DNA of 64,000 nt from a virus (IMGVR_UViG_3300029841_000003); one strand, 5' to 3'. Shown: positions 17,758-35,270, counted from the first letter of the stretch. Program-made: numbers and translations. Notes: generated by a model from the sequence alone, not told the origin.

Positions 17758-17809
17758 ATCAGTCCTGTACACACGCAGCATTCTTGCAGAAAAGAGGTAA
17801 GAGAAGAAA

Positions 17810-18783: not shown

Positions 18784-20255
18784 TGAATACAATGGCAATT
18801 TTACTCTCAGACACATATAAACAGATACATAATAAAATCTATCCAAAAGGACTGACGAAATTAGTATCTTACTGGACCCCACGAAGATCAATGCTTAAGA
18901 ATCAGAACAAAATGGTATTCTTTGGTCTACAGGCATTTATTGAAGAGTATCTGGTCGATTATTTTAATAAAAACTTTTTTGAATTAACAGCAGCAGAAGT
19001 TGAGCATACATATAAATACAGTATGGATATACAGTTAGGAAATAGTTATGACCTAAAGCCTATTATGAAACTTCATAAATTAGGTTATCTTCCAATTCAG
19101 ATACGTGCTATCCCGGAGGGAACATTAGTACCAATGGGCATCCCATGCATCGAAATTACAAACACACATCCAGATTTTGCTTGGGTAGTACAGTGGATCG
19201 AATGTATCCTGCAGGTTGAACTCTGGAAACCATGTGCTCATGCAACAATTGGTCATATGTATAGAGAACTTGCAAATGACTACTATAAAATGACCTGTGA
19301 TGACTTTTTAAGACCTGAAATGGCATGCTCAGATTTTGGTATGAGAGGAATGTCTTGTATGGAAGAGGCAGTAAGATGTTCATCTGCTTGGTTATTATCA
19401 TTTGATAAGACAAGCACAATTCCAGCCATTGATTATATAGATACGTATTATGATGCTTGCTGCTGGACTGAAAAGATTGGAATTGGGGCTGTATCAACAG
19501 AGCATAGCTGCATGGCTTCAAACTTTGCAGTAGACGGTGATGAAATCACATTTGTAAAAAGACTACTTACAGAACTATATCCTAATGCATCTTTTAGTAT
19601 GGTATCTGATACATATGATTACTGGAACATGATTGATAATATCCTTCCGGCTTGTAAAAAAGAAATCATGCAGCATAATGGTAAACTTCTGGTTCGCCCA
19701 GATTCCGGAGATATGGTAGAAATTGCTGTAGAGACAATTGAAAAGCTTTGGAATACATTTGGCGGAACAGTAAATAACAAGGGATATAAAGTGCTTGACC
19801 CGCACATTGGAATTATCTATGGGGACGGATGTACTCTCAACAATGTAGAACAGGTATGGGAAGAACTTAAAGAAAAAGGATTTGCTGCAAACAATATTGT
19901 ATTCGGAGTCGGAGCATTTTGCTTCTCAGCAGTTATAGAACCCGATGGACATATAGTTGTTGTAACTAGGGATATGTTTGGTATTGCTATGAAAGCTACA
20001 TATGGAATTGTTAATGGCGAGCCAATTATGATTTATAAAGATCCAAAAACCGACACGAGTCATTTGAAAAAGTCTCATAAAGGGTGTTGTTGTATATATC
20101 ACGATGACAATGGAGAGTTGCAATGCATGGATGGATTTAATGATGTATTTCGTGACGGAGTATTAAGAACTGTATTTAAAGACGGTGAAATGTATCATAA
20201 AGAAACATTTGAAGACATTAGAGAAAGACTAAACGGAAGAAACAAAGATGAGTAA
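18783..20255 (+). CDS. nadV: nicotinamide phosphoribosyltransferase (NAMPT/NadV)
   Basis: 490 aa, aligned by eye along the full length of NAMPT: ILLSDTYK, AIPEGTLVP, DFGMRGMSCMEEA, VSDTYDYWN, LVRPDSGD, GYKVLDPHIGIIYGDG and VFGVGAF. Confidence 0.85.
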   Translation: MNTMAILLSDTYKQIHNKIYPKGLTKLVSYWTPRRSMLKNQNKMVFFGLQAFIEEYLVDYFNKNFFELTAAEVEHTYKYSMDIQLGNSYDLKPIMKLHKLGYLPIQIRAIPEGTLVPMGIPCIEITNTHPDFAWVVQWIECILQVELWKPCAHATIGHMYRELANDYYKMTCDDFLRPEMACSDFGMRGMSCMEEAVRCSSAWLLSFDKTSTIPAIDYIDTYYDACCWTEKIGIGAVSTEHSCMASNFAVDGDEITFVKRLLTELYPNASFSMVSDTYDYWNMIDNILPACKKEIMQHNGKLLVRPDSGDMVEIAVETIEKLWNTFGGTVNNKGYKVLDPHIGIIYGDGCTLNNVEQVWEELKEKGFAANNIVFGVGAFCFSAVIEPDGHIVVVTRDMFGIAMKATYGIVNGEPIMIYKDPKTDTSHLKKSHKGCCCIYHDDNGELQCMDGFNDVFRDGVLRTVFKDGEMYHKETFEDIRERLNGRNKDE

Positions 20256-20721
20256 AATTACAGATTATTTATTAAAAGATGATGTGATTGTAGTAATGGA
20301 TGTAGATGGAGTACTTGCTCCGTATGAGTTTTCTGAATTAAGTCATAGTATGACTGACGATGAATGGGACAGACTTGTAGCTTCCGGTGAGAATCCGTAT
20401 AAAGATGTGCGTCCGATCAAATTAATACAGGAGTTTATTCAGAAGAAAGGCGTGAATAAAGTATATACCTGTTCAAAGAGTCCTTTAAATGAAATTCCTG
20501 GTAAAAGAGCTTTTATAAAAGACAATTATGATCTGCCAGATGATAATATCTATTTCACTTTAGAAAAGACAGAAAAACTTACTGTGCTTCAAACGCTGCA
20601 ACAAAAGCTCGGACTTAAGCCATCTCAGATTGCAATTGTAGAAGATACAGTTAAAACTTTGGATTATATTCGTGCACATAGCGATTTTGTAACTGTACAT
20701 GTTTCATCATTTATGGAGTAG
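20248..20721 (+). CDS. HAD-superfamily hydrolase (phosphatase/nucleotidase-like)
   Basis: HAD motif I VVMDVDGVLA near the N-terminus. Confidence 0.45.
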   Translation: MSKITDYLLKDDVIVVMDVDGVLAPYEFSELSHSMTDDEWDRLVASGENPYKDVRPIKLIQEFIQKKGVNKVYTCSKSPLNEIPGKRAFIKDNYDLPDDNIYFTLEKTEKLTVLQTLQQKLGLKPSQIAIVEDTVKTLDYIRAHSDFVTVHVSSFME

Positions 20722-21142
20722 ATATAGGGAGGTATTAAAAATGAGTTATTTTACTGATTCAGTTTCAGATCTTTGTCAGGGGATTATTGATAAAGTAGAT
20801 ACTTATGAAAAACGAATCAAATACTTAGAAGAAGAAAACAAAAAGTTCAAAGATGAGCATTATAAAGACTCTGAAATGCAGAGAATGAAAACAGAGTTGG
20901 AAAAAGCAAAAGATGATTTACATAGAGGATTTCCAATTTCTAAAGAAGAAGAGGAGAAAATCAAAGAGTGGCAGTTAAAACATGACGCTGAGAAACATGG
21001 TTTGAAAACTATGGAACAGAGATTGAGAGCTGGCGGATGTTGTGGCGGGAGATATACATATCAATTTGTTCCCACAAGCATTGGAACTATTGGAGAAGTG
21101 ATTTGCTCCTGTGGCGAGAAGTTTACATTTCAGGATTTATAG
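20699..21142 (+). CDS. hypothetical coiled-coil protein with C-terminal Cys cluster
   Basis: 147-aa ORF with C-terminal GGCCGG...CSCGEKF. Confidence 0.3.
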   Translation: MFHHLWSRYREVLKMSYFTDSVSDLCQGIIDKVDTYEKRIKYLEEENKKFKDEHYKDSEMQRMKTELEKAKDDLHRGFPISKEEEEKIKEWQLKHDAEKHGLKTMEQRLRAGGCCGGRYTYQFVPTSIGTIGEVICSCGEKFTFQDL

Positions 21143-21152
21143 GAAAAGATTT

Positions 21153-21653
21153 ATGATTAAAATTATTGAAGGTAACATTGTAGATGCACAGACCGATTAT
21201 ATAATTCATCAAGTTAATTGCCAAGGAGAAATGAATACTGGAGTCGCTAAAGCATTAAGAGATTATGACGAAGGTATTTATATACATTATAGAAACGTCT
21301 GTAAATTACGTGAGTTTAATCCAGAATTACTTCTTGGAACATATGACGAGTACTTTATCAGAAGGAAAAATCAAGAGATATTGTCCTTATTTGCACAAGA
21401 CAAGTATGGATATGATGGAAAACAGTATACTGATGTTAAAGCTTTTCGAGAAGGATTAAATTTTATTCGACAACAAATACCTGTTTATTGGTTTGATGCT
21501 GATAACAGACCTCACAAGACAACCATTGCACTCCCATATAAAATAGGCTGCGGAAGAGGAGGAGCAGACTGGGAAGTGGTTTATAAGATTATAGAAGAAG
21601 AATTAAGTAGTTTTGAAGTAGAATTGTGGAAATTGGAGGAGCAGAATGTTTAA
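21153..21653 (+). CDS. macro-domain-like protein (ADP-ribose binding/processing)
   Basis: The N-terminus MIKIIEGNIVDAQTDYIIHQVNCQGEMNTGVAKALRD parallels the macro-domain pattern (GDIT...DAIVNAAN..GGGGVDGAIHRAAG). The start was chosen at the internal ATG, because the track start at 21111 overlaps the previous gene. Confidence 0.45.
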   Translation: MIKIIEGNIVDAQTDYIIHQVNCQGEMNTGVAKALRDYDEGIYIHYRNVCKLREFNPELLLGTYDEYFIRRKNQEILSLFAQDKYGYDGKQYTDVKAFREGLNFIRQQIPVYWFDADNRPHKTTIALPYKIGCGRGGADWEVVYKIIEEELSSFEVELWKLEEQNV

Positions 21654-22791
21654 TGTAGAAAAAGCAACAAATGATTGTATTCAGTGGATTAGAGATTGGA
21701 GAGAAGAGAATGGTCCTGGATGTAATCTCATAGTAGGTATTTCCGGTGGCGTTGACTCTTTAGTAGCTGCTAAGCTATGTGTGGAAGCCGTTGGAGCTGA
21801 CAAAGTTCTCGGAGTAATCATGCCGAACTATAAACAGGATGATATTGATGTGGCTTATGATATTTGCCAGCATGTATTAAACATTGATTATCTTACTATT
21901 AATATTGGATCAGCTTATGATGATATTATTGATCAAATTGATGCTGCATTTAATGTAACAGATCAGACATTAATTAATCTCGCTCCTAGACTAAGAATGA
22001 CCACTCTATACGGGGTGTCACAGTCACACAATGGAAGAGTGGTTAATACATGTAATCTTTCTGAGGATTACATCGGATACTCCACTAGATATGGTGACGC
22101 AGCAGGGGACTTTTCACCGTTGGCTCAGTTCACAAAGAGTGAAGTAAAAAGAATCGGTTATTATTTAGGACTACCTAAAAAATATATAGAGAAAACACCA
22201 TCAGATGGGTTATGCGGTAAATCAGATGAAGATAGCTTCGGATTTACCTATGCAGTATTAGATAGATATATTCGTACAGGTATTTGCGATGATCCGGAAA
22301 TTAAAAGACGGATTGATCGTTTACATACAAAAAATAAGTTTAAACTGAAACCAATGCAGTATTTTAATTATAAAGAGGAGAAAACAGATATGAATATGTC
22401 ACCAGATGAGATTTTAAAAGCACTTGAAAAAGCAGTAGCGAAAAAAGAAAAAGAGCATACTATTGGAGAAGAGCTTAGAAGCTGTGAGCGTCAGATTAAA
22501 GATGCTTTAGGCATTGATGTATATATTGTACCTAAAAATAAAACTGATAAACAGGTTTGTAAAACACTTTCGAAAGATGATATCACATTTGTAGGAAGAA
22601 CAAAAGATATTGCTACAGGAAAAATTAGAACTACTGTAGGGTTCAAAGATGGAACACAGACTTCTGTAGTCTTAAATGATTGGGAAGACGAAGATGATAC
22701 TGAAAAAGCCATTATGTGGTGTTTGCTTAAGAAGTGTTTCAAATCAAAAAGAAGCTTAGAAAAAGTAATTTATTCAATGGAGGACATGTAA
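21646..22791 (+). CDS. nadE: NH3-dependent NAD+ synthetase (NadE) with ~130-aa C-terminal extension
   Basis: PP-loop SGGxDS (GISGGVDSLVAAKLC) plus NadE-type downstream blocks (RMTTLYGV, GDFSPLA). Residues ~250-381 form an extra domain of unknown function. Confidence 0.8.
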   Translation: MFNVEKATNDCIQWIRDWREENGPGCNLIVGISGGVDSLVAAKLCVEAVGADKVLGVIMPNYKQDDIDVAYDICQHVLNIDYLTINIGSAYDDIIDQIDAAFNVTDQTLINLAPRLRMTTLYGVSQSHNGRVVNTCNLSEDYIGYSTRYGDAAGDFSPLAQFTKSEVKRIGYYLGLPKKYIEKTPSDGLCGKSDEDSFGFTYAVLDRYIRTGICDDPEIKRRIDRLHTKNKFKLKPMQYFNYKEEKTDMNMSPDEILKALEKAVAKKEKEHTIGEELRSCERQIKDALGIDVYIVPKNKTDKQVCKTLSKDDITFVGRTKDIATGKIRTTVGFKDGTQTSVVLNDWEDEDDTEKAIMWCLLKKCFKSKRSLEKVIYSMEDM

Positions 22792-22993: not shown

Positions 22994-23389
22994 ATGAAAA
23001 TACGGAAAGGATTTGTTACTAATTCAAGCTCTAGCAGTTTCATTATTTGCTTTGCAAGGATTGCTGACAAAGAAAAAGCTCAGAAGATAATTGATCAGTT
23101 CAATCTTGATGTATTAGATGTTACTGGTGTAAATGATGAAAAAAACTGGTCTGGTGAGCTTGGTGCTAGTTGGTGCGGAGCGGTCATTTATGGGGTTGAT
23201 GACATTTTAGAAAAGCACCCTGATGGAGAATATATCGTAATTGAGGACAGGAACGATGCTTATTATGATGAATGGGGTGATGCTGTATATGATTATGATT
23301 TCTCTATGAATGAAGCAATAGATGCTATTACGGAAGTAAATGGATTTGCTGATATAGAAGTTGCTGAAGGAGAAGGGAGAGATGGTTAA
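22994..23389 (+). CDS. hypothetical protein, GFVTNSSSSS-motif family (paralog 1)
   Basis: Its N-terminus MKIRKGFVTNSSSSSFII is nearly identical to that of the next gene. RBS GAAAGGAGGG. Confidence 0.45.
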   Translation: MKIRKGFVTNSSSSSFIICFARIADKEKAQKIIDQFNLDVLDVTGVNDEKNWSGELGASWCGAVIYGVDDILEKHPDGEYIVIEDRNDAYYDEWGDAVYDYDFSMNEAIDAITEVNGFADIEVAEGEGRDG

Positions 23390-23772
23390 TGAAAATAAGA
23401 AGAGGATTTGTTACTAATAGTTCGTCTTCAAGTTATATCATTGCAAAAAAGAAAGATGCAACATTAGCAGACATTAAAAATTCACTGTTGAAAGTAAGAG
23501 ACAACGCTAAATCTTTTTTGATTGAACAGCATAAATGGATTGATCTTGAGCCGGATGTAGAAGAGTCAATAAGAAAAGAAGATTATGATAAGGCTGTGGA
23601 TGCGTTTTTAGAACACACAGCAGATTATTTATACGGTAACTTTAATGATGGAACATTAGGTGATTGGGAAGTTGGATCAGATGAATTCTGGAGTGAAAAC
23701 GGGGATCCATATGAAAATTTTATTTTAGATTCTGCATGGCTTATTGGTGATGAAAACTTACAGATTATCTGA
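23389..23772 (+). CDS. hypothetical protein, GFVTNSSSSS-motif family (paralog 2)
   Basis: N-terminus MKIRRGFVTNSSSSSYII. It is a tandem duplicate of the previous gene. Confidence 0.45.
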   Translation: MKIRRGFVTNSSSSSYIIAKKKDATLADIKNSLLKVRDNAKSFLIEQHKWIDLEPDVEESIRKEDYDKAVDAFLEHTADYLYGNFNDGTLGDWEVGSDEFWSENGDPYENFILDSAWLIGDENLQII

Positions 23773-23781
23773 GGAGTAAAC

Positions 23782-24300
23782 ATGAAAATAAAAGCAAAGC
23801 AAATAATTGTAGATGGGAGCACATCTTATAAATATTATAAACCTAAATTCTGTTGCAAAGCATTGGAAGAGAATCCTAGGATAGTTATTTCTAATGAATA
23901 TCCTGATAACTACTTATGTAGAACTTGTGAAACTATAGAATGCCATGGTTGTGACTATAAAACTGATGAAACTTTTGGAATTTTCTTTTACATAAGCGAA
24001 GAAGTCCAAGACTGGGAAGATACATGGCCTGAAGACTATTATTACCCTCTTAAATTCTGTCCATTTTGCGGAGAACCAATTGAAGTTGATGTCATAGAAA
24101 CCATTGATAAAACAGAAGAAGCAGAAAAGGTATCTGAGGTTGCAACGAAGCTACGAAAACAGTTATGGACATGTGATAGCAAGAAAAAGTGTGCAGAGTT
24201 AGAAAAAGAGATAAGGAACTTAGACGATATAGTAAATTATTATTATTCAACAGGAGAAATTGATGAAAATAGAGAAAATCAAAAAATTGTTGAAAAGTGA
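23782..24300 (+). CDS. Cys-rich zinc-finger-like protein
   Basis: 172 aa with CC..C, CRTCETIECHGC and CPFCGEP motifs. Confidence 0.35.
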   Translation: MKIKAKQIIVDGSTSYKYYKPKFCCKALEENPRIVISNEYPDNYLCRTCETIECHGCDYKTDETFGIFFYISEEVQDWEDTWPEDYYYPLKFCPFCGEPIEVDVIETIDKTEEAEKVSEVATKLRKQLWTCDSKKKCAELEKEIRNLDDIVNYYYSTGEIDENRENQKIVEK

Positions 24301-25294
24301 ACACTATGATTTCTTAAGAGCGAACGAGCACCTGGGGAGTAACATAATTCTATTAGGCTTAGGTGGGTCTCATGCTTATGGTACAGATACAGAAAACTCC
24401 GATCTGGATATTAGGGGTTGTGCTTTAAATAAAAGAGAAGAAATCCTGATTCCTACACATAATTTTGATCAGGTAACGGAAGAAACAACAGATACAACAA
24501 TCTATTCTTTTAATAAATTGATAACTCTATTGTCAAACTGCAACCCAAACACAATTGAGCTGATAGGATTGAAGCCAGAACATTATCTTTATATTCATCC
24601 AATTGGTCAAGAACTTCTTGATAATGCTGAAATGTTTTTATCTAAGAAAGCGATCTATTCTTTTGGAGGCTATGCTACAAGCCAGCTAAGAAGGCTCGAT
24701 AATAAATCTGCCAGGAAATTGGGACAAGAAGAAAGAATGCAGCATGTTCTTAATAGTATTATGAATGCTTTTTATACTTTCCCTGAAAAGTATTTCAATT
24801 TTCCAGAAGATGCAATAAAGCTTTATGTAGATAAAGGTATTCAGGAAGATTATGAAACAGAAGTATTTATGGATATCCAGTTGAAGCATTACCCTTTGAA
24901 TGATTATCAGGGGATGTGGGCCGAAATGAAAAACATTGTTAGGGATTATTCCAAAATTGGGAAGAGAAATAAGCATGCCATAGAACATAATAAGTTAGGA
25001 AAGCATATGTGCCATTTAGTGAGATTGTATCTTATGTGTTTTGATATTCTTGAAAAAGGCAAAATTATTACATATAGAGAAGATGATCATGAGCTTCTTA
25101 TGGCTCTACGTAATGGAGAATATTTGGATGCAAACAGTCAGCCTATCCCAGAATTTTTTGAAATGGTAAACGAGTTAGAGAAAAGACTTGAGTATGATTC
25201 AAAGAATACCTCATTGCCTGATAAACCAAATTATAAAGCTATAGAAGAATTTGTAATGTCTGTCAATGAAAGAATTGTATTAGGAGAGATTTAA
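24260..25294 (+). CDS. Pol-beta-superfamily nucleotidyltransferase (minimal NTase fold, PF10127-like)
   Basis: NTase signature GLGGSHAYGTDTENSDLDIRG (GS...D.D). 344 aa. The substrate is unknown. Confidence 0.5.
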   Translation: MMKIEKIKKLLKSEHYDFLRANEHLGSNIILLGLGGSHAYGTDTENSDLDIRGCALNKREEILIPTHNFDQVTEETTDTTIYSFNKLITLLSNCNPNTIELIGLKPEHYLYIHPIGQELLDNAEMFLSKKAIYSFGGYATSQLRRLDNKSARKLGQEERMQHVLNSIMNAFYTFPEKYFNFPEDAIKLYVDKGIQEDYETEVFMDIQLKHYPLNDYQGMWAEMKNIVRDYSKIGKRNKHAIEHNKLGKHMCHLVRLYLMCFDILEKGKIITYREDDHELLMALRNGEYLDANSQPIPEFFEMVNELEKRLEYDSKNTSLPDKPNYKAIEEFVMSVNERIVLGEI

Positions 25295-25296
25295 GA

Positions 25297-27918
25297 ATGA
25301 ATTTTAATGGATTAAAAAGTAGCGAAGTAGAGGTTAGTAGGACTACATATGGAAGTAATAAGCTTCCGGAACCTGAATTGAAAAAATGGTATCATTTTGC
25401 TAAGGAAGCATTAACTGAACCAATTACTATGATTCTAATAATAATTGCTTTGTTTCAGTTGGTTTTAGGCGCTATGGGAGTAATGTCTCTTTCTGAACCT
25501 GTAATGATTATAGTGGTTTTAGCTATTGTTACTGGAATTGCTATTAAGACAGGTCTAGGCGTACAGAAATCTGCAGCAGAGCTAAGAGCAAAAACGGCAG
25601 TTAGATATTGTGATGTTGTCCGAGATGGAAACGTACAGACAATTAATAAAGATGATCTGGTAGTAGGTGATTTAGTTCTATTGAGAACTGGACAAGAGAT
25701 TTTTGCAGATGGATTTATTGTTGATGGAGAAATTTCTGTTAATAACGCCGCTATCAATGGAGAGACAAAAGAATGTAGAAAAATTCCTAGTGCTAATTAT
25801 AAGCATGTTAAAACAACATCAACTACTGCATATACGGATCAGTGTTCTCTCTTTGCAGGAACAGTTATCATGTCTGGTGAAGGAAAAATGATTGTTACAG
25901 ATGTTGGTGTTAATACAGTTAATGGTGATACTCTTGTCAAAATGCAGACTTTAGAGCCTCCTAAGACAGCTCTTGATATTGCTCTGGATCATTTGTGTGA
26001 TTTTATTTCAAAATGGGGAACAATTGCGGCAGCATTAGCATTTGTAATTATGACAATTACAGGTATCTTAAATGCTGGAAGCTTAAGTCAGTATTTCTTA
26101 GGAAGTATTCTTGAAAGTATTCAGAAGGTAGCACAGAATGTCTCAAATGCATTGACAATTATTGTTGCGGCTGTACCGGAAGGTCTGCCACTCATTGTAA
26201 AACTTGTAACTAAACAGAATGTATCGACAATGGAAAAATTCAATATTCTTGCGAAGAATACTGGTAAAATTCCTGAATTGGCGTATGTTAATTTAATTTG
26301 TACGGATAAGACAGGAACTCTCACAACAGGTGAAATGACCTCTACAGTTATGATTAACGGTAACTGTCAGGATATTTTTAATAAGGAAAGTTCGCTCAAC
26401 GAGCTAATTGATTTAAACATTTGCATGAACAATAGCGCAGTGTTTGACTCTAATGGAAACATCACTGGTGGTAATTCGATTGATCGAGCAGTGCTTGATA
26501 TGCTTTCTCCTGAAGATGCACAAAAAATACAGAATAAAGCTATCATAAAGAAACGTGTTCCATTTAGTAGTGAAAATAAATTCTCTGCAATTACTTTAAG
26601 TAATGGAGCAAATGATTTTACTGTTTATAAGGGTGCACCAGAAAAACTGATTGAGAAATGCAAAACTTATCTCGATAATGATGGCAATGTAACTGAGCTA
26701 ACAGAAGAAAAACGAAAAGCTTTGAAAAGTCATATTAAGGGATTAACAGAGAAAGCAATGAGGTGTATTGCATTGACTATCTCAGATAAAGCTGATGATG
26801 GTCTCCCTGATGAAATGAATTTCCTTGGAGTCATTGGAGTTGTTGACCCGGTTAGGAATGAAGTTCCAGAAGCAGTAAAAATTGCTCATAAAGCTGGAAT
26901 TCAGGTAATTGAAATTACTGGTGATTGCATGGAGACGGCTAAGGCTGTTGCTATGGAAGCTGGCATTTATAAGCCTGGAGACTTAGCAGTTACTAATGAT
27001 GAGTTTGAGGCAATGTCAGATGTAAAAGTAAAAGAAATTATTCCACAGTTAAGAGTAATTTCCAGATGCTCACCGAATACGAAACTTCGTCTTGTAACAT
27101 TAGCGCAAGAAATTGGAATGTCTGTAGCAATGACAGGTGATGGTGTGAACGATGCTCCTGCATTAAAGAAAGCAGATGTAGGCTTTGGAATGCAAGACGG
27201 ATCTGATGTAGCAAAAGAAGCAGCAGACATTGTTTTGACGGACAATAATTTTGCAAGTGTAGTAAAAGCAGTCGAACTTGGTAGAACATTTATGCATAAC
27301 ATTATGATGTTCCTTGAATTCCAGCTGCCTATCAATATTTCGTTGTTGATCTTAAGTATGGTATTTCCAATTATTTCTGGTGGCTCTGCTCTATTAGCAG
27401 CAGTTCAGATCCTTATTGTAAATATCATCATGGATTCACTTAACTCATTAAGCTTTGGTGGAGAACCGCCAAAAGAAGAATATATGAATGAAGAGCCTAT
27501 CATGAAAGGATCCGGATTATTTATCCGTGGAGCGAAAGGGAGAATTGCATTAAGTTCAATTGTATTTATTGCTTTATTTGGTGTAATTACATTTGGTCCA
27601 GTTGGGAATATGTTTACAACAAAACTTTCGGCTATGACAGCGAGATTCGCTTTATTGTGTTTAATGGCAGTATTTAATGGATTCACTATTAGAACAGATA
27701 GTATGAATCTTTTCAAAGGAATTAAAAATAATAAATTATTTGTGTATATCGCATTAGGTATTTTTGCAATGACTGTAGTTTTGTGTAATTTTGTAGGAAA
27801 TTTAGTACAGACAACTCCAATGGATGTTAAACAGTGGATTGTAGTCTTAGTGACAGCTTTTATGATTGTGCCTGTAGATTGGATTAGGAAAGCAATTTGT
27901 AAGAAAGGAAGTAAATAA
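25297..27918 (+). CDS. P-type cation-transporting ATPase
   Basis: 873 aa with the phosphorylation motif ICTDKTGTLT, a TGD motif (ITGDCMETA), the hinge MTGDGVNDAPALKKADVGFGM and multiple TM segments at both ends. Confidence 0.85.
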   Translation: MNFNGLKSSEVEVSRTTYGSNKLPEPELKKWYHFAKEALTEPITMILIIIALFQLVLGAMGVMSLSEPVMIIVVLAIVTGIAIKTGLGVQKSAAELRAKTAVRYCDVVRDGNVQTINKDDLVVGDLVLLRTGQEIFADGFIVDGEISVNNAAINGETKECRKIPSANYKHVKTTSTTAYTDQCSLFAGTVIMSGEGKMIVTDVGVNTVNGDTLVKMQTLEPPKTALDIALDHLCDFISKWGTIAAALAFVIMTITGILNAGSLSQYFLGSILESIQKVAQNVSNALTIIVAAVPEGLPLIVKLVTKQNVSTMEKFNILAKNTGKIPELAYVNLICTDKTGTLTTGEMTSTVMINGNCQDIFNKESSLNELIDLNICMNNSAVFDSNGNITGGNSIDRAVLDMLSPEDAQKIQNKAIIKKRVPFSSENKFSAITLSNGANDFTVYKGAPEKLIEKCKTYLDNDGNVTELTEEKRKALKSHIKGLTEKAMRCIALTISDKADDGLPDEMNFLGVIGVVDPVRNEVPEAVKIAHKAGIQVIEITGDCMETAKAVAMEAGIYKPGDLAVTNDEFEAMSDVKVKEIIPQLRVISRCSPNTKLRLVTLAQEIGMSVAMTGDGVNDAPALKKADVGFGMQDGSDVAKEAADIVLTDNNFASVVKAVELGRTFMHNIMMFLEFQLPINISLLILSMVFPIISGGSALLAAVQILIVNIIMDSLNSLSFGGEPPKEEYMNEEPIMKGSGLFIRGAKGRIALSSIVFIALFGVITFGPVGNMFTTKLSAMTARFALLCLMAVFNGFTIRTDSMNLFKGIKNNKLFVYIALGIFAMTVVLCNFVGNLVQTTPMDVKQWIVVLVTAFMIVPVDWIRKAICKKGSK

Positions 27919-27919
27919 A

Positions 27920-28687
27920 ATGGGATTTTTTGATAAGTTATTTGGGAAAAAAGATGAGGAAGCAGCAGTAGAGTTATCTTCTGCTGTAACTCAGCAACCT
28001 GTATATGAAGAAAAGTTACAGACAATTGATATGTCTAAGCACAGTGAAAATCTTGGCAAAGTACTTATTGATATGTCTAAGGGAAGCAAGATTGATATGA
28101 CAAAACATACAGCTAGAGTAGCTCTTGCAATGGATTATTCAGGAAGTATGGATTGGCTGTATGATAATGGATCTGTACAGGAAACCATTTCTCGTTTGTT
28201 GCCTATTGCTCTAAGATTTGACGATAATGGAGAACTTGAGAGTTGGTTGTTCTCAAATGGAGCGGAGCGCTTAAAAGCTGCTAACGCTGATAATTATAGT
28301 AGTTATGTTAAAAATGTTATGAAAAAAGCTCATATGTATATGGGTGGTACTAATTATGCTCCTGTATTGAAAGAAATGGTTACATATTATAAAGATATTG
28401 AGCCAAGTGAGATTCCAGCATTTATCATCTTTATTACAGATGGTGAGAACAGTGACACTTCTGCCACCAATGCAGTTATTAAAGAGCTTTCAGAGTACAA
28501 CATCTTTGTACAGTTCATAGGAATTGGGGATGAAGATTTTGGTTATTTAAAATCCCTTGACAATATGAAAGGTAGAAAACATGATAACACCGGTTTTACA
28601 GCAGTAAAAGACATGAATAAAATGTCTGATGAACAGTTATATACAGAGATTCTTCGTCAGTATAAAGACTGGCTGAATAATAAATAA
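27920..28687 (+). CDS. von Willebrand factor A (vWA) domain protein, TerY-like
   Basis: MIDAS motif DYSGSM, then GGTNYAP and IFITDG, which are typical vWA blocks. Confidence 0.6.
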   Translation: MGFFDKLFGKKDEEAAVELSSAVTQQPVYEEKLQTIDMSKHSENLGKVLIDMSKGSKIDMTKHTARVALAMDYSGSMDWLYDNGSVQETISRLLPIALRFDDNGELESWLFSNGAERLKAANADNYSSYVKNVMKKAHMYMGGTNYAPVLKEMVTYYKDIEPSEIPAFIIFITDGENSDTSATNAVIKELSEYNIFVQFIGIGDEDFGYLKSLDNMKGRKHDNTGFTAVKDMNKMSDEQLYTEILRQYKDWLNNK

Positions 28688-28704
28688 AAAGGAGATAAAG
28701 AGAT

Positions 28705-29343
28705 ATGGCAGTAATCAACATGAGCAAAAATCAGAAAATTAGTATGGTAAAAGAGGATGGTACAGGTATTAAGAACTTCTTCATTGGAGTCAATTGGGAT
28801 CAGAACCGTTATGCTGGTGAAGCAGATATTGACTTTGATATCAATGGATTTTTAACAGATTCAAGTCGCAAAGTAGTATACCCAGAAGATTTAGTAAACT
28901 ATAAAACCTATGAAGATGGGTCTGCATATCCTTGGGTAGATTATTCAGGAGACAATAAAACTGGTGATGATTCTCAGGGAATGATTTTTAATGGAAAGCA
29001 TTATGACGAATATTTTATTGTACATGCTGACACATTCCCGAAAGATAAAACAGAATTTACTATCTGCTTAACAATTTTTAGGGCATTACAGCGTATGCAG
29101 AACTTTGGAATGGTCTCCAATGCAGTTATGACAATTTGTGATTACGACAATCCAGATGGTGATAAGTATGAATATGATCTGTCTGAGAATGAGAACTTTG
29201 AAAAATTGAATGCAGTAGAAATGGGTAAATTATACCGTTACGGAGATGGATTCAAATTCCAGGCATTAGGTTCCGGTTATGTGGGAGGTATGACAGAACT
29301 GTTTAAAAACTTTGGGCTTGATATTGATGAGGGGAGAGACTAA
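28705..29343 (+). CDS. terD: TerD-domain protein (tellurium-resistance/stress TerD family)
   Basis: Blocks align by eye to TerD: ISMVK, GVNWD, SGDNKTGDDSQG, FGMVSNAVMTI, GKLYRYGDGFKFQALGSGYVGGMTELFKNFG. Confidence 0.8.
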   Translation: MAVINMSKNQKISMVKEDGTGIKNFFIGVNWDQNRYAGEADIDFDINGFLTDSSRKVVYPEDLVNYKTYEDGSAYPWVDYSGDNKTGDDSQGMIFNGKHYDEYFIVHADTFPKDKTEFTICLTIFRALQRMQNFGMVSNAVMTICDYDNPDGDKYEYDLSENENFEKLNAVEMGKLYRYGDGFKFQALGSGYVGGMTELFKNFGLDIDEGRD

Positions 29344-30089
29344 TGAACTTATTTGAAATTGTGGTCCTAATAGCTGTAGTAATTAGTATTGTGTTATTTA
29401 TTGCACGTACAACTCAAATTGGTAAGAGAGTGTCACTTAGAGTTGCTGGTACAGCAGACGAAGCAATTCAAAAAGATGCAGCCACCCCTGAGGGAGCTAA
29501 AGCTTATTATAACGCTGCTATTGAAAAGAAAGAAGATGAACTTCAGCAGGAAAATGTAAGATATCAACAGATGCTTGGTAAGATTTCCAATTATGAAGAT
29601 GACCTGTTCCATTTGAAGAAAGATGCCATGAAAGCAGATGTAAATGTAAATGCTTGTGTGGATCGAGGAGATGACGAAGCAGCAAAAGTCTACTTAAAAG
29701 AACAACAGGAGCTGAATGATAAGATTGATTTTATTAAGAGTACATTAAAAGAATGGAAAGAGAATGCTGACGTACAGAAAGAAAAAGTAGAAGTATTACA
29801 GCAACAGCTTAATGATTTAAAAGCAGAAAAAGAAAGTGCTGTTTTAACTTTGGAAACAGCTCAGGCATCAAAAGCTTTTAATGTAACACCGGGAGTATCT
29901 TCTAGTGAAGAGGAAAAGATGCTAGAGAAAGTACGTGACGGAGTTAAAAAGCAAAAAGAGGCTGCTGATGGAGCTAGGATCGTTTATGAAAGTTCTACTA
30001 TTGTGCAAAAACAGCGTCTGGATAAGAAAATGAAAGATGATGAAATTAATAAAAAGTTGCAGGAACTGAAAACAAAGAAAGGCAAATAA
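29343..30089 (+). CDS. PspA/IM30-like coiled-coil protein with N-terminal TM helix
   Basis: N-terminal hydrophobic segment followed by a long coiled coil. Stretches such as DRGDDEAAKVYLKEQQEL resemble PspA (KDREDLARAALIEKQKL). Confidence 0.4.
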   Translation: MNLFEIVVLIAVVISIVLFIARTTQIGKRVSLRVAGTADEAIQKDAATPEGAKAYYNAAIEKKEDELQQENVRYQQMLGKISNYEDDLFHLKKDAMKADVNVNACVDRGDDEAAKVYLKEQQELNDKIDFIKSTLKEWKENADVQKEKVEVLQQQLNDLKAEKESAVLTLETAQASKAFNVTPGVSSSEEEKMLEKVRDGVKKQKEAADGARIVYESSTIVQKQRLDKKMKDDEINKKLQELKTKKGK

Positions 30090-30322
30090 AATGATAGTGT
30101 TAAATATAGGCGTGTTTGTAGTATGCTTATTAACCTGTTTCTTAGTTGGATTCTTTGTAGGGAAGAGAAAATAAGTGTAGTAACAAAAGGTTAAGGTGGG
30201 GTTCAATTCCTCACCTACACTTAAGGAGGTTAAACAATGAAATAAAATATGGAGGTGATATTACGCAAAGAGGAAAACGAATATTAAATAAACCAATTGA
30301 TGACGCATGTGAAAAGGAAATT

Positions 30323-30505
30323 TTGGCACCAACAAAAAGAGTGATCACTGTAGAAGCTGAATACGACTTGACTGATCCTAAATTAATTGGAGCAAAAATA
30401 ACTGACAGAGATATAGTAGAAGAATTGGTAAAAGATGAGTTTATTACATCTTTTGAGCAAAATGATGGATTTGTAAGTTTGACAGTAACTTGTAGTGATT
30501 ATTAG
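30323..30505 (+). CDS. hypothetical small protein
   Basis: 60-aa ORF. Confidence 0.25.
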   Translation: MAPTKRVITVEAEYDLTDPKLIGAKITDRDIVEELVKDEFITSFEQNDGFVSLTVTCSDY

Positions 30506-30516
30506 GAAGGAGAAAA

Positions 30517-30939
30517 ATGATTAATAGTTTTACTGGAGATTATTACTTTTTAAGTAACTTTTATATGGCCCCGGTAAGTTATAACGGATGGGACTATACA
30601 AATAATGAAGCAGCTTTTCAAGCACAGAAAACAAAAAATCGTAGACTAAAATTTCAGTTATTCTCTCAAGCTAGCCCATCAGAAGCAAAGGCAGCAGGTA
30701 GAAAGATTGATTTGAGATCAGATTGGGAAGAAGTGAAAGATAAAGTAATGTATGAAATCGTACTGGCTAAATTCACTCAGAATCCAGACCTTAAGGAAAA
30801 ATTACTTGCTACAGGAGATGAATATTTGGAAGAGGGTAATACTTGGGGAGATACTATTTGGGGAACTGTAGATGGAGTTGGAGAAAATAGGCTTGGGAAG
30901 ATACTTATGAGAGTGAGAGATGAATTAAATGAAACTTAA
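30517..30939 (+). CDS. NADAR (YbiA/DUF1768) domain protein
   Basis: FTGDYYFLSNFY...AFQAQK...W..VK..VMYEIVLAKFTQNPDLKEKLLATGDEYLEEGNTWGDTIWG matches the NADAR family pattern (F.G....LSNF...Eh.fqA.K...W......M...l.KF.q...l...Ll.Tg...L.E....D..WG). Confidence 0.65.
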   Translation: MINSFTGDYYFLSNFYMAPVSYNGWDYTNNEAAFQAQKTKNRRLKFQLFSQASPSEAKAAGRKIDLRSDWEEVKDKVMYEIVLAKFTQNPDLKEKLLATGDEYLEEGNTWGDTIWGTVDGVGENRLGKILMRVRDELNET

Positions 30940-31055
30940 CATATTTTTTATCATTCTTGATGCTATTTTTATAGCAGTATCATTGGTAGACCTTATTACT
31001 TATAAAAATTTATTTAGTTTAATGCTAGTAGCTTTTTTCGCTTGGACATTTGTAA

Positions 31056-31340
31056 TTGATATTAAAGAATATAAAGGAGACAAATAACATGGTAAAAACA
31101 TTAAAAGAAACAACAGAAATGATGGTTAGCCCAGATTATAAAGAAAGATTCAAAGCTGAATATTACCAGTTAATGCTTAGATTCAGAGGTTTACAGTCTA
31201 TGCTCTTTAAATGGGACAATGGAACTCTTAGTTTTGAACCAACATGCCCAAGAAGTACTTATAATATTCAGATTGATGCTATGGCAAGCTATTTAGCTAT
31301 CTTAGAAGCTAGGGCTGTTATGGAAGGTATTGAATTATAA
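31056..31340 (+). CDS. hypothetical protein
   Basis: 94-aa ORF. Confidence 0.3.
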   Translation: MILKNIKETNNMVKTLKETTEMMVSPDYKERFKAEYYQLMLRFRGLQSMLFKWDNGTLSFEPTCPRSTYNIQIDAMASYLAILEARAVMEGIEL

Positions 31341-31518
31341 AGGAGAGAGTATGAATCCAGTATTTGTATTTTTAATATTGGTTGGAGCTGTAGTTTTATG
31401 GTTCCTATTATCTGCATTGTTTTATCCATTCGGACGATTCTTGCATAGAATTTGGAAAGATGCAGTAGACGAAATAAACAGAGAAGAAAATAAAGAAAAA
31501 GATAAGGAGAATGAGTAA
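31330..31518 (+). CDS. small membrane protein
   Basis: 62 aa with a TM helix (VFVFLILVGAVVLWFLLSALFYPF). Confidence 0.3.
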   Translation: MNYKGESMNPVFVFLILVGAVVLWFLLSALFYPFGRFLHRIWKDAVDEINREENKEKDKENE

Positions 31519-32489
31519 TGAAAAAGAAAAAAGGTTTTTTAGGTGGGGTTGGATTAGCAGTAATAATTGCAGCAGGATTAATTTGTGTAGCAAAGTGCAC
31601 AGTAAGAGTTCCTGCTGGTTATGTAGCTGTAGAATACAAGATGAACGGTGGAATTTCAAAAGATACTCTTTCACAGGGATGGAATTTGATTTCACCTACA
31701 GTAAAAACATCACTGTATTCAATTGGTATTGAACAGTCTTATCTGACTTCAGAAGATAAAGGTGATTCACCAAAAGATGAGAGTTTTAAAACTCCTACCG
31801 CAGATGGGAAACAGCTTCTTGTTGATTTGGAATTCTCTTATAAATTCGATCAGGATCAAGTTGCTGATGTATTTACAAGATTTAAAGGTCAGTCCGGAGA
31901 AAGTGTAAAAAATACTTTCATTAAACCAAAGATGAAAGCGTGGACACAGGAAGTAACTGCTAAGTATCCGGTAACAGATGTATTTGGTGATAAACGCCAG
32001 GAACTGAATGAAGCACTTGACAAATACTTGAAAAAGAAATTTGAGCCATATGGAATCATCATTGATACTGTAAACTTTACTTCAATTTCTACAGATGATG
32101 AAACTCAGGCTGCTATTCAGAAGAAGGTAAATGCACAGCAGGAACTGGAACTTGCAAATATTGAAGCTAAGACTGCAAAGGTACAGGCAGATAAAGATAA
32201 GGAAGTTGCTCTCATCGCAGCGGAGCAGGATAAAGAGAAAGCCGCTATTGAAGCTGAACAGGCGAAAATCACTGCGGAAGGTAAAGCTGAAGCTACAAGA
32301 ATTAAAGCGGATGCTGAAGCAGAAGCAAATAAAAAGATCGCTGAGTCACTTACTCCAGAACTTATTGAGAAACAGAAGATTGATAAGTGGAATGGTGATG
32401 TGCCGAAGGTACAAGGTGGAAATGCTGCAACAATTGTTGACGCAGGAGAATTAACATCAGGCAATGTAGCAACTGTTGAAAATAAATAA
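31518..32489 (+). CDS. SPFH/band-7 (prohibitin/HflC-like) domain membrane protein
   Basis: N-terminal TM helix, an SPFH-like core (VPAGYVAVEYKMNGG ... TVNFTSIS) and a C-terminal Ala/Glu/Lys-rich coiled coil. Confidence 0.65.
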   Translation: MKKKKGFLGGVGLAVIIAAGLICVAKCTVRVPAGYVAVEYKMNGGISKDTLSQGWNLISPTVKTSLYSIGIEQSYLTSEDKGDSPKDESFKTPTADGKQLLVDLEFSYKFDQDQVADVFTRFKGQSGESVKNTFIKPKMKAWTQEVTAKYPVTDVFGDKRQELNEALDKYLKKKFEPYGIIIDTVNFTSISTDDETQAAIQKKVNAQQELELANIEAKTAKVQADKDKEVALIAAEQDKEKAAIEAEQAKITAEGKAEATRIKADAEAEANKKIAESLTPELIEKQKIDKWNGDVPKVQGGNAATIVDAGELTSGNVATVENK

Positions 32490-33343: not shown

Positions 33344-33582
33344 TTAAGCAAACCATGGGATGGATTTCTGCTATATGTGGAGTAATTGGAGCTGTATGTA
33401 GTGGTTGGAAGTTAATGCTTTTGCCAGTAGTAACAATATTAAACATGATTGCAGATAAAAAATTAAACCTGTGTATTTTACTAATTTCAATTATGAAAAT
33501 GTTTTTTGCGATACCCATAGCATATTTCATGATTCTTATAGGATTTTCAATCGCTACATATTGTTGGAGGTGGTGGAAATAA
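33340..33582 (+). CDS. small membrane protein (2 TM)
   Basis: Hydrophobic 80-aa ORF. Confidence 0.3.
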   Translation: MIKQTMGWISAICGVIGAVCSGWKLMLLPVVTILNMIADKKLNLCILLISIMKMFFAIPIAYFMILIGFSIATYCWRWWK

Positions 33583-35270
33583 TTTGGATTACGGGTGATA
33601 CACATGGGGGTTGGATCCATAGATTAAATATGGACTCGTTCCCGGAGCAAAGAGAGATGACTAAAGATGACTATGTAATTGTTCTTGGAGATTTTGGGAT
33701 ATGGAGAGATTCACCTCAGCAAAGGTGGTATCTGAATTGGCTTGAAGAGAAGCATTTCACAACACTCTTTATTGATGGAAATCATGAATGTTTTCACAAA
33801 GATACAGATATTTTAACAATTAATGGTTGGATGAATATAAAAGATGTTGTTGAGAGTAAGGAAAATATTCTTGTAGCTTCAGTAAACATGGAAAATCACA
33901 ATATTTCATATTCGAAACCATTAAAAAAAGTTGTAAATTATTGTGATAAATTAATTGAAATTACAAGCTCTAATTTTAAGCAATGTGTTACTTTGAATCA
34001 TGATATTATAGTAAATAACAAAAAAATTAAAGCGAATGAATTATTAAAAAATAAATTTCGTATTGAAGACTTTAGATTTCATATAAATAATATAAATCCA
34101 GGAATTAATATAAGAAATGAGATTATTGAATTAATAACATCTGTTATCATGGACGGAACAATCGTTGATTATAGTCAAATAGATAGCAATTCAAAAAAAA
34201 TGAGAGTGCAATTCCATTTAAAAAAGCTTAGAAAAATAGCATACATAAAAAGTATCCTTGATAGATGCAAGATAAAATATACTGAGAGATATATGGGACA
34301 AAGTGAATGTTATTTGAATATTTATGGAGATGATGCAAGATATATAAATTCATTTTTAACAGGAATAAAGCAAATACCTTGTGAGTGGAGAAATATGTCA
34401 GATATTCAATTTATGTACTTTCTTAATGCTATAGTTAATACAGATGGAACATCATCTGGGAACAATATCGTATGGAGGACCACATCAAAGCATAACGTTG
34501 ATATTGTAACCGAGCTATGCATTAAAAATAATTATGATATCAATGTGATTACTTTAGATAATGCATCAGGCTACACTAATGATGGCTTAGTTCAATATCA
34601 AATTTCTATAGGGAAAAATAAGCGACTTGATGAAAAAATTAAATATGAAATTATTGAGTACAACGATAATGTATACTGTTTGACAATGGATAATGGTACT
34701 TTAATAACACGATACAAAATGTGTCCTGTAGTGAGCGGTAATTGTTACGATATATTAGATTCTTATCCAGTAGAAGAATGGCATGGAGGTAAGGTGCATT
34801 TTATTAAACCATCAGTAATTCATCTCATGAGAGGACAAGTATTTGATATAGACGATTTAAAATTTTTTACTTTTGGCGGAGCTGCAAGTCATGATATTTC
34901 AGATGGAGTATTAGAGATTGACGATCCAAGAATAAAGGAATGGAGGTATGATCCAGATAAGATGTATCGAATCAATCATATTTCATGGTGGGAGCGAGAA
35001 ATGCCAAATCAAGAAGAGATGGATGAAGGTATAAAGAACCTGGCAGAACATGACAATAAAGTAGATTTTATCCTGACACATTGTACAGCTTCTTCTACAG
35101 CAGCATTATTATCACATGGATTATATAAACCGGATAAGCTAACTGATTATTTGGAAGAGATCAGATGTAATGTTGACTATGGACGTTGGCTGTGTGGGCA
35201 TTACCACGACAATAAAGCAATAACGACAAAAGATATAGTTCTATATGAACAGATTGTGAGGATCGCATAA
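33573..35270 (+). CDS. calcineurin-like metallophosphoesterase interrupted by an intein
   Basis: GTG start after RBS GGAGGTGG. Metallophosphoesterase motifs GDTHGG, GDFG and GNHE. The intein (33789-34742) is inserted immediately after GNHE. The extein resumes with CYDIL...GGKVHF...GHYHD. Confidence 0.6.
   Translation: MEIIWITGDTHGGWIHRLNMDSFPEQREMTKDDYVIVLGDFGIWRDSPQQRWYLNWLEEKHFTTLFIDGNHECFHKDTDILTINGWMNIKDVVESKENILVASVNMENHNISYSKPLKKVVNYCDKLIEITSSNFKQCVTLNHDIIVNNKKIKANELLKNKFRIEDFRFHINNINPGINIRNEIIELITSVIMDGTIVDYSQIDSNSKKMRVQFHLKKLRKIAYIKSILDRCKIKYTERYMGQSECYLNIYGDDARYINSFLTGIKQIPCEWRNMSDIQFMYFLNAIVNTDGTSSGNNIVWRTTSKHNVDIVTELCIKNNYDINVITLDNASGYTNDGLVQYQISIGKNKRLDEKIKYEIIEYNDNVYCLTMDNGTLITRYKMCPVVSGNCYDILDSYPVEEWHGGKVHFIKPSVIHLMRGQVFDIDDLKFFTFGGAASHDISDGVLEIDDPRIKEWRYDPDKMYRINHISWWEREMPNQEEMDEGIKNLAEHDNKVDFILTHCTASSTAALLSHGLYKPDKLTDYLEEIRCNVDYGRWLCGHYHDNKAITTKDIVLYEQIVRIA
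33789..34742 (+). mobile_element. intein with LAGLIDADG homing-endonuclease domain
   Basis: Begins with block A CFHKDTDILTINGWMNIKDV (C..DT.I....G). Two LAGLIDADG-like motifs are present (LITSVIMDGTIV and FLNAIVNTDGTSS). Ends VVSGN, followed by the extein Cys (+1 C at 34743). 318 aa in frame. Confidence 0.6.

Follow-up and report, generated by a model that had tools for sequence, protein, structure and literature searches.

The DNA analyzed here, a stretch of 64,000 nucleotides from the virus IMGVR_UViG_3300029841_000003 (referred to as the window), belongs to a large SPbeta-like prophage whose host is Blautia wexlerae. Comparison with related viral loci indicates that positions 25297 to 30089 form a self-standing four-gene operon (hereafter, the cassette), which encodes a P-type ATPase, a stand-alone vWA protein, a TerD-domain protein, and a transmembrane (TM)-anchored protein resembling PspA, and most likely represents an abbreviated, rebuilt Ter system. 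No earlier description of the fused four-gene operon was found in the literature. A sequence-only reading of the same DNA had described eight co-directional, tightly packed genes between positions 24260 and 32489 as one membrane and stress cluster. The region contains 11 open reading frames (ORFs), with the coordinates of that reading confirmed and all on the plus strand, and those beyond the eight include a Sequestin-family gene (31056 to 31340) and 3 small ORFs. The shared orientation thus holds, whereas the packing is tight only from a nucleotidyltransferase (NTase) gene to the gene for the PspA-like protein: the gaps from NTase to ATPase, vWA, TerD, and PspA-like genes are 2, 1, 17, and −1 nucleotides (nt), and a gap of 233 nt (30090 to 30322) follows. 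The domain calls of the sequence-only reading (NTase, P-type ATPase, vWA, TerD, PspA-like, NADAR, and SPFH) were all upheld by Pfam profile searches. The cassette consists of the following genes:

25297-27918, plus strand: core gene 1, predicted PMCA-type (IIB) Ca2+-translocating P-type ATPase, 873 amino acids (aa) (Pfam, NCBIfam TIGR01517)
27920-28687, plus strand: core gene 2, stand-alone vWA protein of the TerF C-terminal (copine-like) type, 255 aa (PF10138)
28705-29343, plus strand: core gene 3, TerD-domain protein, 212 aa (PF02342)
29343-30089, plus strand: core gene 4, TM-anchored PspA/IM30 (ESCRT-III superfamily)-like protein, 248 aa (PF04012, AlphaFold2 [AF2] model with Foldseek)

To delimit the unit, we relied on 80 viral loci retrieved with the vWA protein (66% to 99% identity) and 6 retrieved with the exact TerD sequence, onto which all 11 window proteins were mapped; the counts given below refer to the 70 loci with at least 4 kb on either side of the vWA gene. 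The ATPase, vWA, TerD, and PspA-like genes were present in all 70 loci, in the same order and orientation, with identities as low as 46%, 66%, 31%, and 30%, respectively. Only these 4 genes were constant and the others varied, so that the grouping of eight genes into one cluster was not supported, whereas the combination of TerD, vWA, and P-type ATPase, for which a search of gene neighborhoods had been suggested, proved to be conserved in phages. The block is flanked by 15 different neighbor families upstream and 19 downstream, and in 3 loci with a TerD 100% identical to that of the window (L007, L014, and L017) it occurs alone in another neighborhood. All 4 core genes are under purifying selection (dN/dS of 0.04 to 0.43 wherever dS is unsaturated). 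In one locus, L023, dS is 0.16 to 0.35 for the ATPase and vWA genes and saturated for the TerD and PspA-like genes, which points to a breakpoint between vWA and TerD and to sub-blocks that recombine and have differing histories; that the gene content is restored each time despite such recombination argues for selection on the combination.

The 8.2-kb region had no megablast match among 50,697 phage records. Scans of positions 21 to 34 kb yielded 53 promoter-like sites versus 53.5 expected and 7 terminator-like sites versus 5.3 expected, and because these counts are close to chance, the operon boundaries cannot be set from such signals. No riboswitch or other RNA was detected near the cassette with Rfam. 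PHROGs families exist for all 4 proteins, that of the pump being labeled "ATPase" and the other 3 "unknown function."

The ATPase displays the Cation_ATPase_N, E1-E2, Hydrolase, and Cation_ATPase_C domains, all above the Pfam cut-offs, and reaches the NCBIfam equivalog model for PMCA-type Ca2+ pumps (TIGR01517) by a marginal score of 509.9 bits (cut-off 507.05), while falling far under the cut-offs of the PMR1 and SERCA models. Its nearest solved relatives are Ca2+ pumps, namely, Arabidopsis ACA8 (4.5e-106), followed by SPCA1 and Listeria LMCA1. The DKTGT, KGAPE, TGD, and GDGxNDxPAL motifs are kept in 12 phage copies, and so are the residues of Ca2+ site II, that is, the Glu of the M4 PEGL motif (AVPEGLP) and the M6 Asn...Asp pair (VNIIMD). 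In M5, an N is found and no Glu (INIS); the lack of the second-site Glu together with the retention of site II gives a single-Ca2+-site pattern, as in PMCA and LMCA1. The TGES motif of the A domain, universally conserved in P-type ATPases, is replaced by NGE[ST] (25750 to 25770, residues 153 to 159) in all phage copies and in a bacterial homologue from locus L096 (see below), such that the catalytic Gly-Glu is retained and the Thr replaced, as a trait of the lineage. Based on these sequence features, we predict that the ATPase is a Ca2+-exporting pump of the PMCA type, in line with the link between TerD and a possible Ca2+ pump that had been suggested from the sequence. The phage ATPases fall into 2 lineages distinguished by a VDPVR or an RDDVR motif. 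In locus L040 (5583 to 9828), an insertion of approximately 1.6 kb breaks the ATPase gene into 2 parts, encoding 232 aa and 642 aa; a mobile element, an intron, or decay to a pseudogene could account for it. Two sets of apparent relatives were rejected: the 857-aa "ATPase domain protein" encoded next to TerD in Bacillus phage YungSlug and Lysinibacillus phage LysYB1 is not the same pump (only TerD was shared in tblastn comparisons), and ATPase matches labeled "Listeria/Enterococcus phage" came from unannotated short contigs with 24% to 31% identity and were set aside as probable host DNA.

The vWA protein is the best-conserved protein of the cassette (66% to 99% identity). It had been labeled TerY-like; the profile comparisons place it with TerF instead (PF10138, 2.7e-60, 204.4 bits, threshold 29.4), with further matches to Copine (2.2e-10) and VWA (PF00092, 2.6e-08), and none of the TerY-P models of PADLOC matched it. 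The metal ion-dependent adhesion site (MIDAS) is intact, its residues D72-x-S74-x-S76, T144, and D174 being invariant in 12 diverse copies. The N-terminal TerD fusion characteristic of TerF proper is absent, TerD being encoded by the separate downstream gene; a true TerD-vWA fusion was observed in L096. A vWA profile retrieved nothing from the PDB sequences at E ≤ 0.01. TerF-type vWA homologues with approximately 30% to 35% identity are present in 339 records of cultured phages, including Escherichia phages of the Phapecoctavirus type and phages of Streptomyces, Gordonia, Pseudomonas, and Caulobacter, and are mostly annotated as hypothetical, indicating that the stand-alone vWA gene is a widespread, uncharacterized phage gene. 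The protein begins with a conserved MGFFDKLFGKK sequence (27920 to 27955) followed by a variable linker. This sequence resembles the internal GFFGKLFGNAKK motif of TelA in the bacterial Ter cluster L096 (12381, minus strand), and motifs resembling GF[LI]SRLFGG were seen in Burkholderia loci fetched via vWA homologues (L100, L117, and L132; reading frame unchecked) and in a TerD protein of YungSlug; judging by this resemblance, it may be a short membrane- or partner-binding motif shared by Ter proteins.

The TerD protein matches PF02342 with 2.1e-34 and 119.1 bits (gathering threshold 25.3) and aligns over its full length to solved TerD structures (Klebsiella 2kxt, 1.2e-22; 3ibz, 6.5e-21). The DxD, GDNxTG, and DE positions (D43, D45, D62, D83, N84, G87, D101, and E102) are invariant in 14 TerD sequences, and the motifs DxD and GDNxTG...DDE are, we presume from the Klebsiella TerD structure, the Ca2+ ligands. 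An insert of 8 to 9 residues specific to the clade lies inside the Ca2+ loop. Relatives carry one TerD copy or 3 in tandem (L046 and L080).

The fourth protein carries at its N-terminus a hydrophobic TM helix (residues 3 to 25) followed by basic residues. All 14 of the diverse family members searched match PF04012 (best 2.7e-10), and the family profile retrieves Vipp1/PspA as its best PDB matches (Vipp1 8qbr, 2e-4, register 54 to 30). Since the alignment begins at Vipp1 residue 30, helix alpha0 is missing and the TM helix takes its place. In the AF2 model (pLDDT 74.8), a helix at residues 3 to 33 precedes a long helical hairpin, the helices of which (49 to 108 and 111 to 179) have pLDDT values of 80 to 95, and Foldseek ranks 1 to 16 against the PDB are all Vipp1/PspA (4whe, TMt 0.78, rmsd 1.6 Å). 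The protein is accordingly modeled with an ESCRT-III-like helical hairpin fold. The alternative that it is a divergent TelA, the usual coiled-coil partner in Ter systems, was rejected (hhalign probability 1%). An exhaustive search of 1.84 billion representatives returned 151 clusters, nearly all of approximately 245 aa and aligned from the N-terminus, so that these TM-anchored PspA proteins make up a small family that seems to be associated with phages. The adjacency of the TerD and PspA-like genes persists at 28% to 30% PspA identity, in one locus with the full cassette downstream of NAMPT and NAD synthase genes (L141) and in another as TerD-TerD-PspA-like with the ATPase 5.5 kb upstream (L147). 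Genomic context was looked up for 8 PspA-like clusters: in 7 of them, phage-encoded genes for transport or ion binding adjoin the PspA-like gene or lie close to it, whereas the contig of the remaining one (P0208), at 1.7 kb, is too short to tell. More distant members, at 21% to 26% identity, were observed in L142 (6821 to 7561), L143, L144, L145 (5557 to 6309), L146, L149, and L150, in a phage-like cassette of a different makeup: an ABC permease (BPD_transp_1), an ABC ATPase, an ORF of approximately 180 to 200 aa, the PspA-like gene, and a gene for an NMT1/OmpA protein of approximately 525 aa. In L145, this cassette is surrounded by genes for NAMPT, NAD synthase, and CinA, and in L142 a 650-aa Band_7 gene is located two genes downstream of the PspA-like gene.

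The closest cellular relatives of the cassette were found in 2 Lachnospiraceae metagenome-assembled genomes (L096 and L097), in which a P-type ATPase with 36% identity lies beside TerD genes and a TerF-type vWA gene. The arrangement in L096 comprises YceG-TelA-TerD, a true TerF (TerD-vWA fusion), and HAD-x-ATPase-TerD-TerD; its ATPase has the same NGE motif and the RDDVR variant. By gene content, L096 is a Ter cluster of the B. subtilis yceCDEFGH type, with the P-type pump in the usual place of TerC, a family of proteins described as metal exporters (PMC10550928). The bacterial contigs were scanned with 2 peptide patterns, which returned 49 loci, an undercount that is of no use for frequencies in bacteria. 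In a fecal virome contig (L138), the ATPase gene is followed by 3 TerD genes with no vWA gene. The Ter functional classes, as summarized in PMC7824862, are represented in the phage cassette as follows:

Metal/ligand sensor: TerD in the phage cassette, usual counterpart TerD
Membrane transporter: P-type ATPase in the phage cassette, usual counterpart TerC
Sub-membrane element: vWA protein in the phage cassette, usual counterpart TerF
Sub-membrane element: PspA-like protein in the phage cassette, usual counterpart TelA

The correspondence of the parts to the L096 host cluster, one per Ter class, underlies our view of the cassette as a reduced and reassembled Ter system. Like the bacterial Ter/yce clusters (terZABCDEF of IncHI2 plasmids, yceCDEFGH of B. 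subtilis, and L096), it encodes TerD, for which these clusters have paralogues, and a TerF-type vWA together with a cation exporter of the membrane and a sub-membrane protein of coiled-coil type. In contrast to them, the vWA is split from the TerD domain, a TM-anchored PspA-like protein stands in place of TelA, and the 4 genes are tightly packed, co-directional, and conserved in phages. No TerC, TerB, TelA, or YceG was present among the Pfam annotations of the window genes and of the near-identical loci (±10 kb), and no HAD or PRTase gene was seen in or around the phage cassette. A standard host ter operon captured by the prophage, which the sequence-only reading had named as a refutation, is therefore matched in its parts, whereas the phage version has been rebuilt and is conserved as such among phages.

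The same reading knew of no described phage system with this combination. Pieces of it have in fact been published, whereas no description of the fused operon was found. Jumbo phages carry subsets of TerD, TerF-vWA, and TelA/TerC, for which a role in membrane superinfection exclusion was proposed (Iyer et al. 2021, PMC7824862); these sets, from proteobacterial and actinobacterial phages, contain TerC and TelA and lack the P-type ATPase and the PspA-like protein, whereas the cassette, from gut Lachnospiraceae prophages, shows the reverse. Ca2+ P-type ATPases were reported as new in phages for the Jug phages of Bacteroides/Phocaeicola (preprint 2025, Sci Adv 2026, PMC12880540) and were listed there for another 85 gut phages, including some that are Bacillota-like; in the Jug phages, both the ATPase and a TerD-pspA-like pair are highly transcribed. 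There, the pump operon includes a small upstream ORF and the TerD-pspA-like pair forms a separate operon, whereas here all are joined in one operon with a TerF-type vWA; the Jug-phage paper mentions no vWA and does not tie the pump to TerD or PspA. The cassette thus brings into a single operon 2 elements that recent work had reported apart from each other, the Ca2+ pumps of phages and their TerD-pspA pairs. Compared with PspA, Vipp1, and LiaH, the PspA-like protein has the same fold and register from helix alpha1 on, and presumably likewise forms a membrane-stabilizing polymer, whereas a TM anchor replaces alpha0, PspBC/PspF, LiaIF, and Toastrack are lacking, and the partners are TerD, vWA, and the pump. 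A comparative study of the PSP system mentions no TerD, vWA, calcium, P-type ATPases, or phage-encoded PspA (PMC11237479). Finally, the cassette can be compared with eukaryotic Ca2+-triggered ESCRT-III repair, in which a Ca2+ sensor acts upstream of ESCRT-III in membrane repair (PMC7618577, PMC13486606), and with copines (C2-C2-vWA). The types of parts are the same, namely, a sensor with a Ca2+-binding beta-sandwich, a vWA of the copine type, a polymer of the ESCRT-III family, and a pump of the PMCA type; the likeness is one of analogy only, as TerD is not a C2 domain and the cassette lacks ESCRT-I/II, ALIX, and Vps4.

The function of Ter and TerD proteins has been obscure for decades, though they are widespread and linked to phage, colicin, and tellurite resistance, and the cassette, reduced to 4 genes that are strictly conserved and whose parts can be interpreted (pump, Ca2+ sensor, MIDAS adaptor, and ESCRT-III-like scaffold), renders a Ca2+/membrane hypothesis directly testable. 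With roughly even confidence, we propose that the cassette is a Ca2+-linked membrane-protection module operating on the cytoplasmic side of the membrane of the host cell. If that membrane were breached or leaky in the gut lumen, Ca2+ would enter; TerD would bind the incoming Ca2+ and, via the MIDAS vWA protein as an adaptor, engage the membrane-anchored PspA-like polymer, which would stabilize or seal the bilayer, and the pump would bring cytosolic Ca2+ back to the resting level. In this way, the infected Blautia cell could stay energized and survive for as long as the production of progeny requires, even under attack by bacteriocins or by abortive-infection effectors that disrupt the membrane. 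The location of the cassette amid the early/replication region and counter-defense genes (NAD+ salvage, Tpt1/RlaP/RNA ligase, Sequestin, and NADAR) makes a role in cell survival most likely. The candidate roles put forward in the sequence-only reading, namely, envelope or ion homeostasis, exclusion, and protection from abortive infection, are plausible.

Several points weigh against this proposal. The ATPase barely exceeds the Ca2+ equivalog cut-off and has NGE[ST] in place of TGES, and its specificity for Ca2+ (versus Mn2+) is a prediction. The PspA-like protein of the window scores below the gathering score of PF04012 (5.9e-07, 29.7 bits versus 33.9) and lacks the amphipathic helix alpha0. 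The presence of the 4 genes in 70 of 70 loci is conditional on the loci having been found via vWA homologues of at least 66% identity, and distant stand-alone vWA homologues (39% to 59%; L092, L094, L095, L098, and L099) occur without the partners. None of the PADLOC-DB v2 defense models matched the ATPase, vWA, TerD, or PspA-like protein. All mechanism beyond the domains being encoded together is inferred, and because the element is a prophage (integrase, tRNA-Arg, and Blautia flank), expression in the lysogen for the benefit of the host is equally possible.

A more specific form of the membrane-protection proposal, drawn by analogy and rather doubtful in our estimation, is that the cassette might be a self-contained viral machine for Ca2+-triggered membrane repair, with TerD as the sensor, vWA as the coupler, the PspA-like protein as the sealant, and the pump as the reset. 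If so, the Ca2+-dependent wound repair that eukaryotes carry out with ESCRT-III would have in it a prokaryotic/viral counterpart, used by large gut phages against membrane-disrupting abortive-infection effectors, and the cassette would offer the first mechanistic handle on how Ter systems act.

Among the alternatives, a defense by lysogenic conversion is a real, if minority, possibility: expressed from the prophage, the cassette would shield the Blautia lysogen from superinfecting phages and bacteriocins, like plasmid ter operons, as a superinfection-exclusion or host-fitness module with no function in the lytic cycle. The window indeed derives from an integrated prophage (integrase at 60724 to 61986, tRNA-Arg at 62260, and a Blautia SH3 flank) whose extreme prevalence fits a benefit to the host; Ter operons have been implicated in phage inhibition and colicin resistance (PMC8123226), and Iyer and Aravind proposed this very use for jumbo-phage Ter genes (PMC7824862). 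However, the cassette is co-directional within a long early/replication array and, unlike typical morons, has no promoter or terminator above chance; the analogous genes are highly transcribed in the 360- to 402-kb Jug phages during active infection; and the lack of PADLOC matches to the core proteins tells against this alternative as well. The early/replication position among counter-defense genes, taken with the high transcription of the Jug analogues, renders a lytic role in countering abortive infection somewhat likelier than lysogenic defense.

We regard it as unlikely that the cassette serves ion homeostasis alone, in which case the pump would lower cytosolic Ca2+ to optimize replication and packaging, as hypothesized in the Jug-phage paper, TerD would be a Ca2+ buffer or pump regulator, and the vWA and PspA-like proteins would help to insert or stabilize the pump, with no sensing or repair of damage. 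The Jug-phage Ca2+ ATPase is highly transcribed on its own, and ATPase and TerD genes are linked without vWA in L138 and L096. Furthermore, the location of distant TM-PspA-like genes next to another phage transporter (ABC permease/ATPase; L142 to L146, L149, and L150) suggests a general "transporter helper" role. The TerD-PspA-like pair, however, is found apart from the pump in the Jug phages and in L147, implying that the pair has a function of its own, and one would not expect a protein that only helps with assembly to be the best conserved of the 4, as the vWA protein is.

The original model, in which all eight genes would form one integrated envelope-stress system, now appears very improbable. 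The genes are co-directional and close together, the NTase gene lies directly upstream of the pump gene in 23 of the 70 loci, SPFH proteins can tether PspA in B. subtilis (PMC8581546), and a Band_7 gene is two genes away from the distant PspA-like gene of L142. Synteny nevertheless largely refutes the model: NADAR and Sequestin genes occur in 15 loci and the SPFH gene in 12, all but one in close relatives; L007, L014, and L017, with their identical TerD, lack all 3 genes; and the known functional themes to which Sequestin and NADAR belong are different ones. Control of lysis timing, whereby the PspA-like protein and its partners would counter a premature holin-induced collapse of the proton motive force (PMF) and set the latent period, is likewise highly unlikely. 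In its favor, PspA classically responds to membrane insults that dissipate the PMF, and the PspA-like protein is membrane-anchored in the AF2 model, but the cassette lies in a replication/accessory region with no adjoining lysis genes and the Ca2+ pump, TerD, and vWA would be left unexplained.

Because their presence varies across the 70 loci, the NTase, NADAR, Sequestin, and SPFH genes are considered variable neighbors and not part of the core. They sit in an accessory region rich in counter-defense genes, NADAR and Sequestin representing other known defense or counter-defense themes:

24260-25294, plus strand: RlaP-family (Pol-beta) NTase (PF10127, 4e-16; phrog_388)
30517-30939, plus strand: NADAR (YbiA-like) protein (PF08719, 1.3e-29)
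31056-31340, plus strand: Sequestin-family protein (PF21825, 3e-17, 62.7 bits versus cut-off 24.8)
31330-31518, plus strand: single-TM protein, 62 aa, overlapping the start of the SPFH gene
31518-32489, plus strand: TM-anchored SPFH/Band_7 protein, 323 aa (PF01145, 3.3e-23; phrog_200)

The NTase gene, which likely starts with the ATG at 24263, is present in 37 loci, directly upstream of the ATPase gene in the 23 mentioned above and elsewhere in the locus in 14, and is absent from 33. The NADAR protein exceeds the cut-off of TIGR02464 (82.5 versus 73.7), matches PADLOC PDC-M42C (1.3e-15), and shows a weak match to the NADAR anti-phage model; all loci with a NADAR gene are close relatives. Indeed, the NADAR, Sequestin, and SPFH genes are limited to close relatives, except for the SPFH gene of L059. 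The Sequestin gene likely starts at 31089, giving a product of 83 aa, and an 83-aa "Sequestin" gene is called in near-identical loci. Members of this family (PF21825) have been shown experimentally to sequester 3'cADPR, cancelling type I Thoeris (bioRxiv 10.1101/2025.07.12.664507). The spacing R-x3-E...Q...R in the window protein appears to resemble the published pocket residues, and the protein is predicted to be a 3'cADPR sponge against Thoeris. The 62-aa TM gene and the SPFH gene, both present or both absent in most loci, constitute a separate two-gene unit. No NfeD partner was found beside the SPFH gene: the adjoining 62-aa ORF matches nothing in Pfam or PHROGs and does not have the length needed to encode NfeD.

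The phage-borne nature of the element is borne out by its viral relatives in IMG/VR (contigs of 90 to 250 kb) and, within the window, by a replication module like that of SPbeta, an integrase gene, and flanking Blautia sequence. The window has a low GC content (approximately 33%) throughout, is coded almost wholly on the plus strand, and contains 5 tRNAs and a replication set of NAD-dependent ligase, DnaB-like helicase, primase, DNA polymerase, RecD-like helicase, and ribonucleotide reductase, in addition to genes for NAD and RNA metabolism (NAMPT, NAD synthase, and RNA ligase); homologues of YorF and YorH are annotated in near-identical loci. The features that locate the prophage end and the NAD/RNA genes are as follows:

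18783-20255: NAMPT
21646-22791: NAD synthase
36352-37650: RNA ligase
60724-61986, minus strand: tyrosine-type integrase (phrog_1)
62260: tRNA-Arg(CCG), adjoining the integrase gene

Past the integrase and tRNA-Arg, the GC content jumps from 33% to 44%, and the prophage probably has its right end and its attachment site in Blautia within this region (60724 to 62332). Annotated copies of the SH3 protein of the flank and of the TerD protein exist in Blautia and Blautia wexlerae. For the exact TerD sequence, 8,421 blocks of an assembly collection are indexed, on contigs of up to 0.2 to 1 Mb, so that the protein is present in thousands of gut assemblies, which, together with the IMG/VR relatives, indicates a very common human-gut prophage. 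The carrier is among the most prevalent prophages of B. wexlerae, an abundant human gut commensal, and owing to this prevalence it would be ecologically relevant if the cassette altered the membrane physiology of the host or its resistance to phages.

Several further features of the window were observed. Positions 16954 to 22791 and 36352 to 37650 hold a dense group of likely counter-defense and repair genes; a PRPP-synthetase-like protein is encoded within the former, Tpt1 (PTS_2-RNA) is found in near-identical loci, and the whole group, with NAMPT, NAD synthase, and RNA ligase, resembles a phage NAD+ reconstitution pathway combined with an RNA-repair set. A RAGATH-27 RNA motif (14745 to 14832, plus strand; 91.3 bits versus the Rfam gathering score of 76.1) is located just past the ORF at 14100 to 14738, in a tRNA-rich region. 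The gene at 33471 to 35270 encodes a 599-aa metallophosphoesterase seemingly split by an intein-like insert: Pfam and PHROG matches cover residues 38 to 113 and 419 to 592 only, and the homologues in near-identical phages are 219 to 281 aa (L003 and L005) or 537 aa (L006) long. Finally, the tandem genes at 22994 to 23389 and 23389 to 23772 encode paralogous small proteins with no Pfam match that have in common the N-terminal motif R-x-G-F-(V/E)-T-N-S-S-S; proteins with this motif are also encoded upstream of the stand-alone vWA gene in L092 (7299 to 8917) and L094 (7747 to 8693), which are relatives from the mouse or rodent gut.

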